Shown: one piece after another, positions 1,115-48,918 of the stretch
Numbering within the stretch: the stretch's first letter is position 1
Layout of the letters: each line of letters starts with the position of its first letter
Source of the DNA: a virus
Virus record (IMG/VR): IMGVR_UViG_3300032007_000018
Location: 136,445-200,444 of that record
Reading direction: 5' to 3' (one strand)
DNA: 64,000 nt
Notes under the pieces: model-generated
What the model was told of the DNA's origin: nothing
Database searches by the model: none
The model's input: only the letters and a program-made list of their open reading frames with translations
Program-made: the position numbers and the translations under genes

Positions 1115-2110
1115 ATGGGAAAAAAGATTGATTTAACAAATTAGCGTTTTGGAAAATTATTAGTATTAAAAGAAGGCGGACGAGACTCTTCTAATAAGAT
1201 TTTATGGATTTGTAAATGCGATTGCGGTAATATTAAAGAAGTCCGCGGCAGTGATTTAAGAAGCGGTAAAATTCTTTCTTGTGGTTGTTTTGGGAAACAA
1301 CAAAGAATTATTGGAAAACAAAAGTATTTACAAAACAAAGGAATTGGTTTTCGTAATGACTTAACAAATAAAAAATTTGGAAAATTATTAGTGCTAGAAT
1401 TCAATTAGGAAGAAACACAAAAACAAAGAGAAAAACGAAAAAATTATTCTAGTTTGTGGAAATGCAAATGCGATTGTGGAAATATAATTAACGTAGAAGG
1501 ATCTGCTTTAACAAGCGGACATACTAAATCATGTGGTTGTTTGCAAAAGGAATTGGCATCTAAGAATATGAAATAGAATATTTAGCCAATAGGAGCAACA
1601 ACTAGATTTATAGATTTAACAAATAAAAAATTTGGAAACTTAACAGTCTTAGAGCGTTGTTTAAAGAATAATCAACAAAATAAGCCTCGCTGGATTTGTA
1701 AATGCGAATGTGGAAATATAGTAATTGTTGATGGAAGTTCTTTAAGACAAGGACTAACTTAGTCTTGTGGTTGTATAGGTAATTCATTAGGTCAAAATAA
1801 AATTAGGCAAATTTTATTAGATAATCATATATTATTTTAGCAAGAAGTAAAATTTAAAGACTTGAAAGATTAGTCTTATTTACGTTTTGATTTTGGCATA
1901 TATGATTCAAATAAAAATCTTGTTAAATTAATTGAATATGATGGAAGATAGCACACAGACGAAAGAAGTGCTTGGCATAATGAAGAATTAATCAAGCATG
2001 ACTAGATGAAAAATGAGTATTGTAAAAATCATAATATTCCATTACAAAGAATCTCTTATTTAGACTATGATAAAATTGATTTAGAATATCTTTTGGACGA
2101 GGTAGAATAA
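1115..2110 (+). CDS. homing-endonuclease-like protein: repeated W-x-C-K/Q-C-D-C-G-N ... CGC zinc-finger modules plus C-terminal Vsr/DUF559-like PD-(D/E)xK domain; 8 in-frame TAG codons
   Basis: ATG after AAGGAG; single frame readable through to TAA at 2108 only if TAG is sense; C-terminus EYDGR*H... aligns to EFDGAQHF of the intact paralogue at 22033-23169. Confidence 0.5.
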
Positions 2111-2158
2111 TTTTCTACCTCGCTTTTTTATTTATGACACAAGAGGAATCTTCTTTCT

Positions 2159-2212
2159 TTGATTTTTTATAAAAAATATATTATAATATTTATAGAAAAT
2201 AAAGATAAGGAG
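2159..2212 (+). promoter_or_regulatory. sigma70-like promoter repeat (TTGATT -35, 17-nt spacer, TATAAT -10, AAGGAG SD)
   Basis: first of about 20 near-identical copies of tttgatttttataaaaaatatattataatatatatagaaaataaagataaggag. Confidence 0.6.
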
Positions 2213-2221
2213 TTGTTCAAT

Positions 2222-2485
2222 ATGTTCCTTGGTTATCACGATAGTCCTAGCTGCGATTTTGATCTTTGGAGTCCTAATCCTACCAGATGGGGTAATAACG
2301 CGATTGAGAATCGTGCATTCTCTCCGTTTGCAAAGCATCAGACCGAGCTGGATGAAATAGTCGAAATGATTGCGACCGGTAGCACTTCCTTTGAGCTGGA
2401 CGATGATTTCGGTCCTTCTGATCTGGAGTATATCCAGAATGAGCTTGAAAAACGTGGTATTTATGCCAATTTATCATTATCTTAA
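2222..2485 (+). CDS. hypothetical protein
   Basis: ATG 10 nt after AAGGAG of promoter/SD repeat; ends TAA. Confidence 0.5.
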   Translation: MFLGYHDSPSCDFDLWSPNPTRWGNNAIENRAFSPFAKHQTELDEIVEMIATGSTSFELDDDFGPSDLEYIQNELEKRGIYANLSLS

Positions 2486-2659
2486 AAGGGATGGTCATAT
2501 GAATGAAGCATAGACTTTAGAACAAAAAGTCAAATTGTATGTTGAATGGACTCCAGATAATCCATATTATGGTAATTATAAATATTTAGATGAACTTGGG
2601 ATGCAATATGGATATGGAGTTGTCTTTAAAGAAATTAAGCGTTAGAAAAAAGATTATAT

Positions 2660-2690
2660 TTGATTTTTATAAAAAATTTTGTTATAATAT
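2660..2690 (+). promoter_or_regulatory. promoter repeat copy driving the tRNA array
   Basis: TTGATT...gttataat about 35 nt upstream of tRNA-Tyr. Confidence 0.55.
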
Positions 2691-2723
2691 ATATACAAGA
2701 TAAGAAAAGAAAGAAAAAAGTAT

Positions 2724-46292: not shown

Positions 46293-46295
46293 AAA

Positions 46296-46547
46296 ATGAC
46301 TAACAAAGAAGCTGTGATTGGTGTTCTCAAGGAGCATTCCTGCCTGACTGGTTTCCAGATTAAGGGCTTCGCGCATCGTATGTTTGGCGTAGATATTACT
46401 CCTCAGACCGCGTCCGGAGTGCTGCGTCCTCTGGTTGCGGCCGGCTATGCTGGTAAGTCTACTGATCCTGCAAGTGGTAAGATGGCCTATTGGCTGACGG
46501 ATTATGGAAAGGAGAAACTGTTTAATGGGGATGTACAGAAATCATAA
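46296..46547 (+). CDS. hypothetical protein
   Basis: 83-aa ORF after GAGGAGGAATAAAAAATG. Confidence 0.45.
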   Translation: MTNKEAVIGVLKEHSCLTGFQIKGFAHRMFGVDITPQTASGVLRPLVAAGYAGKSTDPASGKMAYWLTDYGKEKLFNGDVQKS

Positions 46548-47043
46548 AAAGGCTAATTTTGGCATAGCAGATGAAAAATTAGAACTGTGCCAAGATAGAG
46601 TGACTTTTCTCTCCTTTGACCAGTGGCTAACTTTCTACAATGCTGACCCGGCTCACTGGACTGATTTAGTCAATTCTAATTATAACAGTGGCAAAAGAAA
46701 ATATCATCTGCCAGTATATACCATAGAAACAACTCATACTTCTTATTATACTCAAAGGAAGATTACTGAGCCTAAATACCACTATATCAAATTCCTCACT
46801 CGCAGAGATTTCTGGAAATATATTCGATTTATACGCAAAGCCGAAAAGAAAGGTGAGGATTACCAGAACTCGCAAGAAATTCTGGTTTTGGCAGAAGCTG
46901 TTCGCCAGGAATCTGCCAAGAGAGTTGAAGCTCTCCAAAAGGAACAGGCTGAAGCTGTCCGTCGTAATCAAGAGATTATTGACAATATGGACAATGCGGC
47001 TGACCTTATTAACTTTATGATAAGAGGAGGGCAGGCAAAATGA
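46504..47043 (+). CDS. hypothetical protein
   Basis: 179-aa ORF overlapping upstream gene. Confidence 0.4.
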   Translation: MERRNCLMGMYRNHKKANFGIADEKLELCQDRVTFLSFDQWLTFYNADPAHWTDLVNSNYNSGKRKYHLPVYTIETTHTSYYTQRKITEPKYHYIKFLTRRDFWKYIRFIRKAEKKGEDYQNSQEILVLAEAVRQESAKRVEALQKEQAEAVRRNQEIIDNMDNAADLINFMIRGGQAK

Positions 47044-47114
47044 CAGTTTTGGAAGAGGTTGCTCTGACGAGCATCTTTCTTTACTATACTCTTTGTGAAA
47101 GAAAGTGATAATAT

Positions 47115-47966
47115 ATGAACTACCATTCTGATAAATGGATTATGGCGAGGGTTGTAGAGCATTTTGAAGAAGCTAAAACCCTTATTCCCGAAAAGCACAT
47201 TGTTGGTGTCTTCCTGCAAGGATCACAAAATTACGGTTTGGACTATGAAGGTTCCGACATTGACACAAAGTGCATTACAACTCCTACTTTTAAGGAAATT
47301 GCACTTGCGCGAAAGCCTCTAAGCACCACTCACGTCAGAGAAAACGATGAACATATCGACCTCAAAGATATCCGCGCTTATTTAGAAACATTTAAAAAAC
47401 AAAATTTAAATTTCCTTGAGATTTTATTTACTAAATATGCTATTTATCCAAATGAAAATTTTGCTAAAGAATGGCGCAGATTGATTGAACATAGAGAAGC
47501 AATCACACACTACAATAAGATTCGATGTGTGAAATCAATGATGGGAGTTGCCTCAGAAAAATTTTTTGCCATGGAACATCATTATCCTTCTCGAATGGAG
47601 TGGATAAATAAATTTTCTTATGATCCAAAACAATTACATCATCTATTAAGAATCCAAGAATTTTTAAATAAATACATTAATGGAATGTCTTTTGAAGAAT
47701 GCCTACTTACGACACAAGCAGATTATTTACAAAATGTAAAACTTGGTTATTATAATCTTGACGAAGCTCGTGAAGTGGCAAATTGTAATTATAATAAAAT
47801 TAAAGAGCTTTGTGATGATTATTGTGAGAAACATAAAAATGATTCAATAGATACTTCTGTGGAAGATCTATTAGAAGATGTAGGATACAATATTATGAAA
47901 ATCTCTATTGAAAAAGATTTTTCAGCAGAAAATAAAAATATAGAATTTTCTTTGGACAAAACCTAA
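47115..47966 (+). CDS. Pol-beta-superfamily nucleotidyltransferase (GS-x9-13-DxD), possible RNA/tRNA 3'-end NTase
   Basis: GSQNYGLDYEGSDIDTKC matches the minimal NTase / class-I CCA-adding enzyme signature. Confidence 0.5.
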   Translation: MNYHSDKWIMARVVEHFEEAKTLIPEKHIVGVFLQGSQNYGLDYEGSDIDTKCITTPTFKEIALARKPLSTTHVRENDEHIDLKDIRAYLETFKKQNLNFLEILFTKYAIYPNENFAKEWRRLIEHREAITHYNKIRCVKSMMGVASEKFFAMEHHYPSRMEWINKFSYDPKQLHHLLRIQEFLNKYINGMSFEECLLTTQADYLQNVKLGYYNLDEAREVANCNYNKIKELCDDYCEKHKNDSIDTSVEDLLEDVGYNIMKISIEKDFSAENKNIEFSLDKT

Positions 47967-48015
47967 ACTTTTATATAAAATATTTTTCATATATAAATGA
48001 AAGAAGGTTTGATAT

Positions 48016-48918
48016 ATGAAAAATGAAATTGGTAATAGATATGGAAAACTTGTAGTGGTAGAAAGAGCCCCTAAACCCGAAGGACGTCCTAAAGGAGCAT
48101 ACTGGCTTTGCAAATGCGACTGTGGTAATAGTAAAATTGTTCGTGGAGCTGATTTACGCAGCGGAGATGTAAATAGTTGCGGCTGTCTTTATGGCTAGCA
48201 TAGTGTAAAAAATGAAATTGGACATAAATATGGACGTTTAACTGTAATTAGCAGAGCCGAAACACAGGGTACAAGAGGAGCTCTTTGGAAATGTCAATGC
48301 GAATGCGGCAGTACTGTTATAGTAACTGGTGGAGATTTACGCAATGGCTCTGTTTAGAGTTGTGGCTGTCTTATTAGAGATAGAAGCCGAGAAGCAAATC
48401 TTAAAGATCTTGTAGGATAGCGTTTTGGTAAACTTGTTGTTTTATCTTTTAATGAAAACGAATCCACTAAAAAGAAAGCAACTTATTGGAATTGTAAATG
48501 TGATTGCGGAAATAATGTTATCATCAGAGGTTCCTTTTTAAAAACCGGAGCAACAAAATCCTGCGGATGTATCAAAACAAGTTTTGCAGAAGAATATATT
48601 GAGAAATTATTAAAAGAAAATAATATCAAATATCAAAAAGAATACAGTATTAAAGATTTTTACACACCTAAACATGGTATTCCTAGATTTGATTTTGCTA
48701 TTTTTAATGATGATAATAAACTTTTAGAATTAATAGAATATGATGGCGAATAGCATTATAAGGCTGTTGATATCTGGGGTGGAGAAGAAGCATTACAATA
48801 TCGCTAGGAACTGGATGCGTTAAAAACAAAATATTGTAAAGAACATAACATAAAATTATTACGCATTCCATATACTTATGACTTAAATCAATTAACTCTT
48901 AATGATCTTATTAATTAA
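48016..48918 (+). CDS. homing-endonuclease-like paralogue, in-frame TAGs
   Basis: WLCKCDCGN, WKCQCECG, WNCKCDCGN, EYDGE*HYKA...NIKLLRIPYTY; 900 nt in frame. Confidence 0.45.

Follow-up and report, generated by a model that had tools for sequence, protein, structure and literature searches.

A family of free-standing, TAG-rich candidate homing endonuclease genes in a phage that reads TAG as glutamine

T-even phages harbor free-standing homing endonuclease genes (seg, mob) whose products have GIY-YIG or HNH catalytic domains. Such genes are inserted intergenically between conserved genes, occur patchily among relatives, are co-transcribed with their neighbors and are restrained post-transcriptionally; translation of I-TevI, for example, is delayed. 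Here we describe a gene family that can be likened to the T-even homing genes in its intergenic insertion and patchy distribution, and probably also in its co-transcription and post-transcriptional restraint. It lies in a 64,000-nucleotide stretch of viral DNA, referred to below as the window (IMG/VR record IMGVR_UViG_3300032007_000018, positions 136,445 to 200,444). The T-even restraint of the nuclease relies on RNA structure and late promoters, unlike the reassigned stop codon considered here, namely TAG, which this phage reads as glutamine. We consider it quite likely, from sequence comparison and modeling, that the family consists of free-standing homing endonuclease genes whose nucleases are delayed or attenuated by TAG codons.

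Another described system with which the family can be compared is the I-Bth0305I or 'EDxHD' (Vsr-like) family of homing endonucleases, which includes phage Hef-type enzymes (PMC3239194; PMC2677866). Both families are found in phages and combine an N-terminal DNA-binding region with a C-terminal domain that is Vsr-like, in our case by prediction, and both have a conserved acidic-acidic-His set, here in the form D..ExD..H..D. The N-terminus, however, is built here of two to four Cys-rich beta modules and there of NUMOD or helix-turn-helix repeats, and the genes are free-standing here but intron- or intein-resident there. Sequence identity to I-Bth0305I is 13%, with no sequence-level match; the invariant D, E, D, H, D and K of the family may correspond to E-D-x-H-D. 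True sequence homologs, with the same module repeat and C-terminal domain, are the proteins of PHROG 374, 559, 9084 and 7140 from phages of Staphylococcus, Bacillus, Enterococcus, Listeria and other hosts; they are at most about 44% identical to the family, and their phages use the standard code.

With regard to codon usage, the precedent is found in Agate phages, in which a group I intron endonuclease within an early standard-code region is preferentially TGA-recoded, which was read as delaying production of the endonuclease until late (Borges et al., bioRxiv 10.1101/2021.08.26.457843). The two cases share a reassigned stop codon that is favored in a homing endonuclease gene amid standard-code genes. 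They differ in that TGA is read as Trp there and TAG as Gln here, in that the nuclease families are different, and in that a single intron-borne gene is involved there, as opposed to seven free-standing paralogs, one of them stop-free, and one remnant here. Since Borges et al. proposed exactly this idea for the TGA-recoded endonuclease, gating by a reassigned stop codon is not new. The kind of case, homing endonuclease genes preferentially written in a reassigned stop, is already known, and the present example is an unusually tidy one.

Seven genes and one remnant

An earlier reading made from the letters of the window alone (the sequence-only reading) had proposed seven homing-endonuclease-like paralogs with tandem Cys-rich modules, six of which would need amber read-through. 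All seven were found where it had placed them, each in frame, with three to nine in-frame TAG codons in six of them and none in the copy at 22033–23169. Together with a truncated eighth copy, the members are:

1115–2110, plus strand: three Cys-rich modules and a nuclease domain; nine in-frame TAG codons; GC content 0.28
22033–23169, plus strand: four modules, the first degenerate, and a nuclease domain; no TAG and 11 CAA codons
23270–24043, plus strand: two modules; six TAG codons; first gene 3′ of the promoter repeat at 23171–23199 and directly 5′ of a TAG-free Ro/TROVE-like gene
25699–26595, plus strand: three modules; three TAG codons; directly 3′ of a terminator-like hairpin (25627–25655) that is itself 3′ of the Ro-like gene
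40494–41207, plus strand: two modules; eight TAG codons; between the promoter repeat at 40379–40407 and the start codon of a TAG-free gene resembling that of the major vault protein (MVP), with its stop codon 4 nt 5′ of the MVP-like ATG
43649–44377, minus strand: two modules; seven TAG codons; convergent with the MVP-like gene, with which it has a bidirectional terminator-like hairpin (43632–43667) in common
48016–48918, plus strand: three modules; five TAG codons; flanked by an RlaP-like nucleotidyltransferase gene and, with an overlap of 17 nt, a metallophosphoesterase gene
58088–58330, plus strand: truncated copy, reduced to the C-terminal half of its nuclease domain (G-D-TAG-H ... D..K..YC ... 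RIPY)

The remnant at 58088–58330 has neither modules nor a start codon, matches the family hidden Markov model (HMM) with an E value of 1.9e-11 and also belongs to repeat family D11. Family HMMs searched against the window matched the seven open reading frames (ORFs; E 1e-42 to 1e-46) and this remnant, and nothing else; the family is one of seven intact members and one wreck. Each intact copy has its own ATG preceded by a Shine-Dalgarno-like sequence. Intron- or intein-borne genes were ruled out, as the copies are separate ORFs with their own start codons and an Rfam scan of the window returned only tRNAs and no intron RNA family.

The regular expression C.C.CG...CGC retrieved 18 modules from the six-frame translation of the window, all of them within family ORFs and none elsewhere, and a 19th, degenerate module occupies the first position of copy 22033. 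A module has five conserved Cys residues and is modeled at a predicted local distance difference test score (pLDDT) of ~90; the modules are probably zinc-binding. In the model of the whole 378-residue protein (pLDDT 88, predicted template modeling score (pTM) 0.43), each module is a small beta unit to which a short helix is appended. Pfam has no model for it, and we found no biochemical study of the module plus Vsr-like architecture.

The C-terminal domain, when modeled alone with AlphaFold (pLDDT 91), is predicted to adopt a PD-(D/E)xK fold of the Vsr type, resembling Vsr, TnsA and restriction endonucleases in structure comparison. Its nuclease motif is D..ExDGxQH..DxxK, of which D, E, D, G, Q, H, D and K are invariant in 45–55 homologs. 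The earlier assignment of a Vsr/DUF559-like PD-(D/E)xK domain is upheld at the level of the predicted fold, and alignment revealed neither an absence of the catalytic residues nor a lack of Gln/Lys conservation at the TAG columns.

Database searches support the proposal of a homing-endonuclease-like family with tandem Cys-rich modules. Matches in PHROG were to families 374 and 559 (both labeled 'HNH endonuclease'), 9084 ('homing endonuclease') and 7140 ('intron encoded nuclease'), with E values of 1e-61 to 1e-15. With tblastn, 597 phage records were found to contain relatives; none reached 60% identity, and those among the matches listed had about 44% at most. BFVD contains many viral proteins of the same build, variously named homing endonuclease, restriction enzyme, DUF2726, treble-clef zinc finger or zinc-ribbon. 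With Pfam, the whole proteins gave only weak DUF2726/DUF5889 matches at the C-terminus: two of the seven exceeded the DUF2726 gathering score of 24.7 bits (24.9 and 27.4) and the other five fell below it, and 16 of 23 domain sequences matched DUF2726/DUF5889 at E<0.01. No Pfam HNH match at E<=1 was present in the family proteins. Because of this, and because the only nuclease-like domain has the predicted PD-(D/E)xK fold, these members are misnamed by the 'HNH' label of the databases. HMMER profiles run against PDB sequences yielded nothing credible and no link to any PDB chain. A Foldseek search of PDB with the whole 378-residue model returned only meaningless Tudor, SH3 and kinase matches and was discarded; it is uninformative because the repeated modules dominate and the pTM is 0.43.

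Genetic code and slot-specific insertion

The phage, which is at least 155 kb in size, reads TAG as Gln (code 15). A megablast search with 4.5 kb against 50,697 phage records gave no match, and it is therefore not a deposited phage. Identical proteins are encoded on an ENA contig of 71.7 kb and a JGI contig of 155.5 kb, both assigned to this phage. Among 74 genes, listed in part with the help of ENA's code-aware gene calls for this phage, 58 end in TAA, 16 in TGA and none in TAG, and 32 of the 74 contain in-frame TAG. Between 2.7 and 22 kb of the window, ARAGORN predicted 33 tRNA genes, 29 of which were confirmed by Rfam. Two of the predicted tRNAs are suppressors:

19380–19455, plus strand: suppressor tRNA with anticodon CUA (ARAGORN; Rfam 38 bits)
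19664–19738, plus strand: second suppressor tRNA with anticodon CUA (ARAGORN; Rfam 57 bits)

The acceptor stems and the G73 discriminator of these tRNA(CUA) genes resemble those of the tRNA-Gln(CUG) in the window. At the Gln column of the DG.QH motif, all six recoded copies and the remnant have TAG and the TAG-free copy has CAA; of 52 family members, only one or two have anything other than Q or TAG there. Over the same 52 members, the combined share of Q and TAG at the window's TAG columns is 32%, as compared with a background of 4.3%. The conserved Gln column and the tRNA(CUA) genes support the claim that six copies need TAG to be read as Gln.

Standard-code calling of the same phage (L167, JGI contig Ga0256407_10000190) shreds the recoded genes and splits a radical SAM gene; of the seven copies, six are missed there and the TAG-free one alone is called over its full length. 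Genes in the window fall into two classes, one with GC 0.43–0.50, CAG and almost no TAG, the other with GC 0.27–0.36, CAA and most of the TAGs.

Insertion points were compared among related phages. A scan of IMG/VR with the neighboring MVP-like and Ro-like proteins gave 160 loci from phages of roughly 100–200 kb, of which 60 contain family members, at varying slots. The closest relative, IMGVR_UViG_3300032030_000014 (loci L003 and L085), has an MVP-like protein that is 84% identical. Its gene order is that of the window: its tRNA part runs Thg1, two tRNA(CUA), tRNA-Leu, g20236, two tRNA-Lys and tRNA-Cys; its Ro part runs Ro-like gene, g27299 and pyrimidine-dimer excision gene; and its MVP part runs MVP-like gene, g45747 ... 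RlaP-like gene and metallophosphoesterase gene. Although backbone and suppressor tRNA genes are thus retained, these two loci contain no family member at all. The promoter repeat of L003 runs uninterrupted into the MVP-like start codon, the two elements that copy 40494 separates in the window. The slots of copies 25699, 40494 and 43649 are empty in L003, and that of copy 48016 is empty in L009. Homologs of five copies occupy corresponding slots in other phages:

Homolog of copy 48016: L034, 76% identity, slot 5′ of the phosphoesterase gene
Homolog of copy 23270: L155, 75% identity, slot 5′ of the Ro-like gene
Homolog of copy 40494: L016–L023, 55% identity, slot 5′ of the MVP-like gene
Homolog of copy 25699: L091, 50% identity, slot directly 3′ of the Ro-like gene
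Homolog of copy 22033: L166, 69% identity, slot directly 3′ of tRNA-Cys

Paralogs within the window are only 35–45% identical to one another, compared with 50–76% for the same-slot homologs in other phages. Since each paralog is closer to copies in other phages than to those beside it, recent intragenomic duplication was ruled out. The insertions are intergenic and show presence and absence at the same slots, in agreement with the free-standing insertions that had been proposed. In these genome comparisons, patchy presence, slot fidelity, a decayed copy and intergenic placement together form the signature of free-standing homing endonuclease genes. We infer cleavage and homing from this pattern, as well as an effect on timing from the codon usage described below. 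Each paralog lineage is tied to one intergenic slot next to a conserved gene (Ro-like, MVP-like, metallophosphoesterase or tRNA-Cys). The two to four Cys-rich modules presumably read a long DNA site, and the nuclease presumably cuts the allele of a co-infecting relative that lacks the homing endonuclease gene (HEG); the gene would then be copied in by recombinational repair.

In the relative, two unrelated ORFs fill the slot that separates tRNA-Cys from the Ro-like gene (L085, 4518–5885). The second has an NPPF motif typical of N6-adenine methyltransferases, and the two may be a restriction-modification pair. Pfam gave no matches for nine neighboring small ORFs, including both of these.

The sequence-only reading had also suggested, with low confidence, that the over-represented palindrome CTGCGGCCGCAG could be the target site. 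Over-represented it is, with four exact copies in the window and eight at one mismatch or fewer, against 0.06 expected. It lies, however, 174 to 7045 nt from the nearest family copy, is absent from the loci of the HEG-less relative, which span the empty slots, and is rare in related loci (10 matches in 2.2 Mb, in 7 of 172 loci). Distance, absence at HEG-less loci and rarity led us to reject it as the homing target, and nothing ties the palindrome to the family. Two of the four copies lie directly 5′ of promoter repeats, within a longer palindrome. This extended palindrome, TTCACCTGCGGCCGCAGGTGAA, occurs at 941, 9155, 27172 and 27224, includes a NotI site and may serve as a terminator or operator. 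Two of its copies, separated by 52 nt, are directly 5′ of the promoter at 27248, and a further one is directly 5′ of that at 9182.

TAG usage and its possible meaning

The window contains about 18 copies of a 29-nt sigma-70-type promoter repeat, nearly all on the plus strand. At ~18 sites (e.g., 6684, 18092 and 44455), a sequence of about 45 nt is highly conserved, TTGATTTTTATAAAAAAATATATTATAATATATATAGAAAATAAAGAA, which contains the -35 element TTGAYT, a 17-nt spacer, the -10 element TATAAT and a conserved initial transcribed region. Three occurrences bear on the family:

20950–20978, plus strand: promoter repeat nearest 5′ of tRNA-Lys, tRNA-Lys, tRNA-Cys and the TAG-free copy
23171–23199, plus strand: promoter repeat 5′ of copy 23270 and the Ro-like gene
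40379–40407, plus strand: promoter repeat 5′ of copy 40494 and the MVP-like gene

Both suppressor tRNAs are preceded by such a repeat as well. The statement that all copies sit beside promoter repeats held for only some of them: a repeat is directly upstream of copies 23270 and 40494, directly downstream of copies 1115 and 22033 and divergent by copy 43649, but none lies within 150 nt of copies 25699 and 48016.

TAG makes up 38 of 77 Gln codons (49%) in the six recoded copies and 63 of 484 (13%) elsewhere in the window (odds ratio (OR) 6.5, p 5e-12). Compared only with other genes of GC<0.36, in which the count is 43 of 170 (25%), the OR is 2.9 (p 2.6e-4). In other phages, TAG accounts for 150 of 505 Gln codons (30%) in 43 unique family members versus 874 of 10879 (8%) in other ORFs (OR 4.8), and stratification by GC in 2% bins gives a Mantel-Haenszel OR of 2.1 (p 7e-11). 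These p-values are optimistic, because the tests treat related sequences as independent. Composition accounts for most, not all, of the TAG excess.

The contrast is strongest within the plus-strand promoter-repeat operons, whose membership was inferred from consensus promoter and terminator scans only: TAG makes up 19 of 30 Gln codons in the embedded copies 23270, 40494 and 48016 versus 7 of 196 in 27 non-family genes (OR 47, p 1e-14). Neighbors of low GC in these operons have no TAG either, with 0 of 7 in the RlaP-like gene (GC 0.32) and 0 of 6 in the NADAR gene. As these low-GC neighbors avoid TAG, it is therefore selected against there, yet tolerated in the embedded copies. The minus-strand block at 28.1–40.3 kb and the right end show intermediate TAG use (38 of 183). 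Of the timing idea in the sequence-only reading, a sharper form does hold: three recoded copies are TAG-rich islands in almost TAG-free operons.

Because these three copies sit in otherwise nearly TAG-free operons, TAG probably delays or attenuates their translation. The copies would be transcribed from host-type promoter repeats along with their almost TAG-free neighbors. Six to eight TAGs per gene would halt full-length translation until tRNA-Gln(CUA) gains the upper hand over release factor 1, each additional TAG multiplying the effect, and the nuclease would be delayed or attenuated while the co-transcribed TAG-free neighbor is translated normally. Taken by itself, a gating effect of TAG seems to us about evenly balanced between being real and not.

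Several observations weigh against gating. The raw TAG excess largely follows low GC, with about a two-fold excess left within GC bins, and stratification within the window alone gives a Mantel-Haenszel OR of 2.1 with a p of just 0.03. The six copies have 38 TAG, 36 CAA and a mere 3 CAG as Gln codons; TAG and CAA have equal base composition, so their near equality fits a neutral equilibrium. Orthologs often have Y, E, K or S where these copies have TAG, which resembles tolerated point mutations in fast-evolving genes. TAG-rich genes are also found 5′ of the suppressors in the tRNA array, namely the radical SAM gene at 15883–17175 (8 TAG) and copy 1115 (9 TAG). The suppressor tRNAs and the recoded copies are under the same promoter type, and any delay would therefore rest on tRNA accumulation and not on a later promoter class. 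The dependence of the operon comparison on promoter and terminator scans belongs on the same side.

The TAG-free copy, the only one translatable without suppression, starts 30 nt 3′ of tRNA-Cys and lacks its own canonical promoter repeat. With the nearest one upstream at 20950, it is probably co-transcribed with the tRNA genes. The absence of TAG among its 11 Gln codons has a probability of 5.6e-4 at the rate of its paralogs and a marginal 0.04 at the rate of other low-GC genes. Six of 43 family members in related phages are TAG-free too, within TAG counts that span 0–14, and this weakens the case for a special role. The suggestion that this copy acts before the suppressor is expressed, and that the family is temporally partitioned, was not established, given the marginal probability, the TAG-free relatives and the same promoter class; from its sequence, a special early role is possible. 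The copy belongs to a widespread 4-module subfamily of 371–392 residues, which has three TAGs, including that of the invariant Gln, in one other recoded phage group and none in another; this and the TAG-rich genes 5′ of the suppressors likewise weaken a special role. In two other recoded phage groups (L161–L165), members of this subfamily lie directly 3′ of a PIF1/UvrD-like helicase gene, starting 1 nt past its stop codon, and 0.7–1.4 kb 5′ of the gene for DNA polymerase III alpha.

A bolder proposal would take the reassigned stop as a translational lock on selfish nucleases in standard-code operons with host-type promoters, silencing them until enough suppressor tRNA-Gln(CUA) is present and confining them to phages of the same code. 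The TAG-free paralog, transcribed together with the tRNA genes, would escape the lock and act at once or in standard-code relatives, and the family would be partitioned by code in time and host range; we regard this as doubtful. Alternatively, the TAG richness may have no regulatory meaning. In AT-rich, fast-evolving HEGs under weak selection for translation efficiency, TAG would drift to mutational equilibrium with CAA, and the TAG-free copy would be the low tail of the distribution or a lineage under somewhat stronger selection. This is a serious possibility, though we lean a little against it. It accommodates the near-equal TAG and CAA counts, the drop in OR on GC stratification from 6.5 in the window and 4.8 in other phages to ~2.1, the range of TAG counts in the 43 relatives with six at zero, and the alignment of TAGs with residues (Y, E, K, S) that are single-mutation neighbors; other genes of very low GC are TAG-rich too (8 of 16 at 15883–17175 and 4 of 5 at 39973–40302). 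What it leaves over is the two-fold excess that persists within GC bins (p 7e-11 across phages) and the lack of TAG in the RlaP-like and NADAR genes, low-GC neighbors in the same operons.

The TAG-free copy might instead be a recent immigrant, brought from a standard-code relative by homing in a co-infection, in which TAGs have not yet accumulated. Its nearest homolog indeed occupies the same tRNA-Cys slot of contig L166, where 12.5 kb contain no called gene with in-frame TAG, one called gene ends in TAG, and no tRNA(CUA) precedes tRNA-Leu(UAA). An identity of 69% is not recent, however; code-15 ORF sums slightly exceed code-11 sums on this contig of 14.9 kb, and the copy's GC (0.33), third-position GC (0.19) and exclusive use of CAA match the resident paralogs. 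We therefore find immigration improbable. More improbable still is that the family is not selfish and comprises phage nucleases with a cellular role, in degradation of host or competitor DNA or in repair, duplicated for dosage or specificity. The fold is common to repair and restriction enzymes (Vsr, TnsA, restriction endonucleases), the BFVD neighbors are often named 'restriction enzyme', and the 4-module subfamily of two other phage groups keeps to one position, between helicase and DNA polymerase III alpha. Yet all copies are absent from the closest relative, whose whole backbone is kept, one copy has decayed and each lineage is slot-specific; moreover, paralogs that are 35–45% identical are at odds with recent duplication for dosage. 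Free-standing homing endonuclease genes with nucleases delayed or attenuated by TAG are, in our view, the best account of the family.

Neighboring features and significance

Beside the array of 33 tRNA genes, the window contains seven genes of RNA-repair or ribonucleoprotein type (18152–18988, 24075–25619, 41212–43626, 47115–47966, 49761–50240, 51257–52447 and 56599–58062). They comprise Ro60/TROVE-like (DUF2828+DUF7788), MVP-like (Pfam MVP_shoulder + Vault_3), flotillin/SPFH, Thg1, RNA ligase, RlaP-like nucleotidyltransferase and NADAR genes, all of them TAG-free; the MVP-like gene is found in at least 80 IMG/VR phage contigs. The region 4400–10000 has scattered tRNA genes, a GC of 0.43–0.48 and almost no ORF longer than 100 residues in either code, and may hold unannotated RNAs. 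Tandem repeats of 66 nt occur in two adjacent genes for leucine-rich-repeat (LRR) proteins and repeats of 42 nt in the next gene (29995–31262 and 31674–32009). Between the window and the ENA contig of this phage there is a difference of 66 nt, equal to one repeat unit of the LRR-protein genes.

Standard-code gene callers shred genes such as those described here, and the 'HNH endonuclease' label misnames their catalytic domain. The module plus Vsr-like architecture is widespread and could yield new programmable DNA-binding nucleases. For phage biology, the window offers a natural case for what stop-codon reassignment does, with TAG-free cargo and TAG-laden selfish genes in single operons; since both share one promoter, they differ in code but not in transcription. 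If TAG does gate the nucleases, the model in which recoding regulates late functions would be extended from lysis genes to mobile elements, and a private code could contain or tame selfish DNA.

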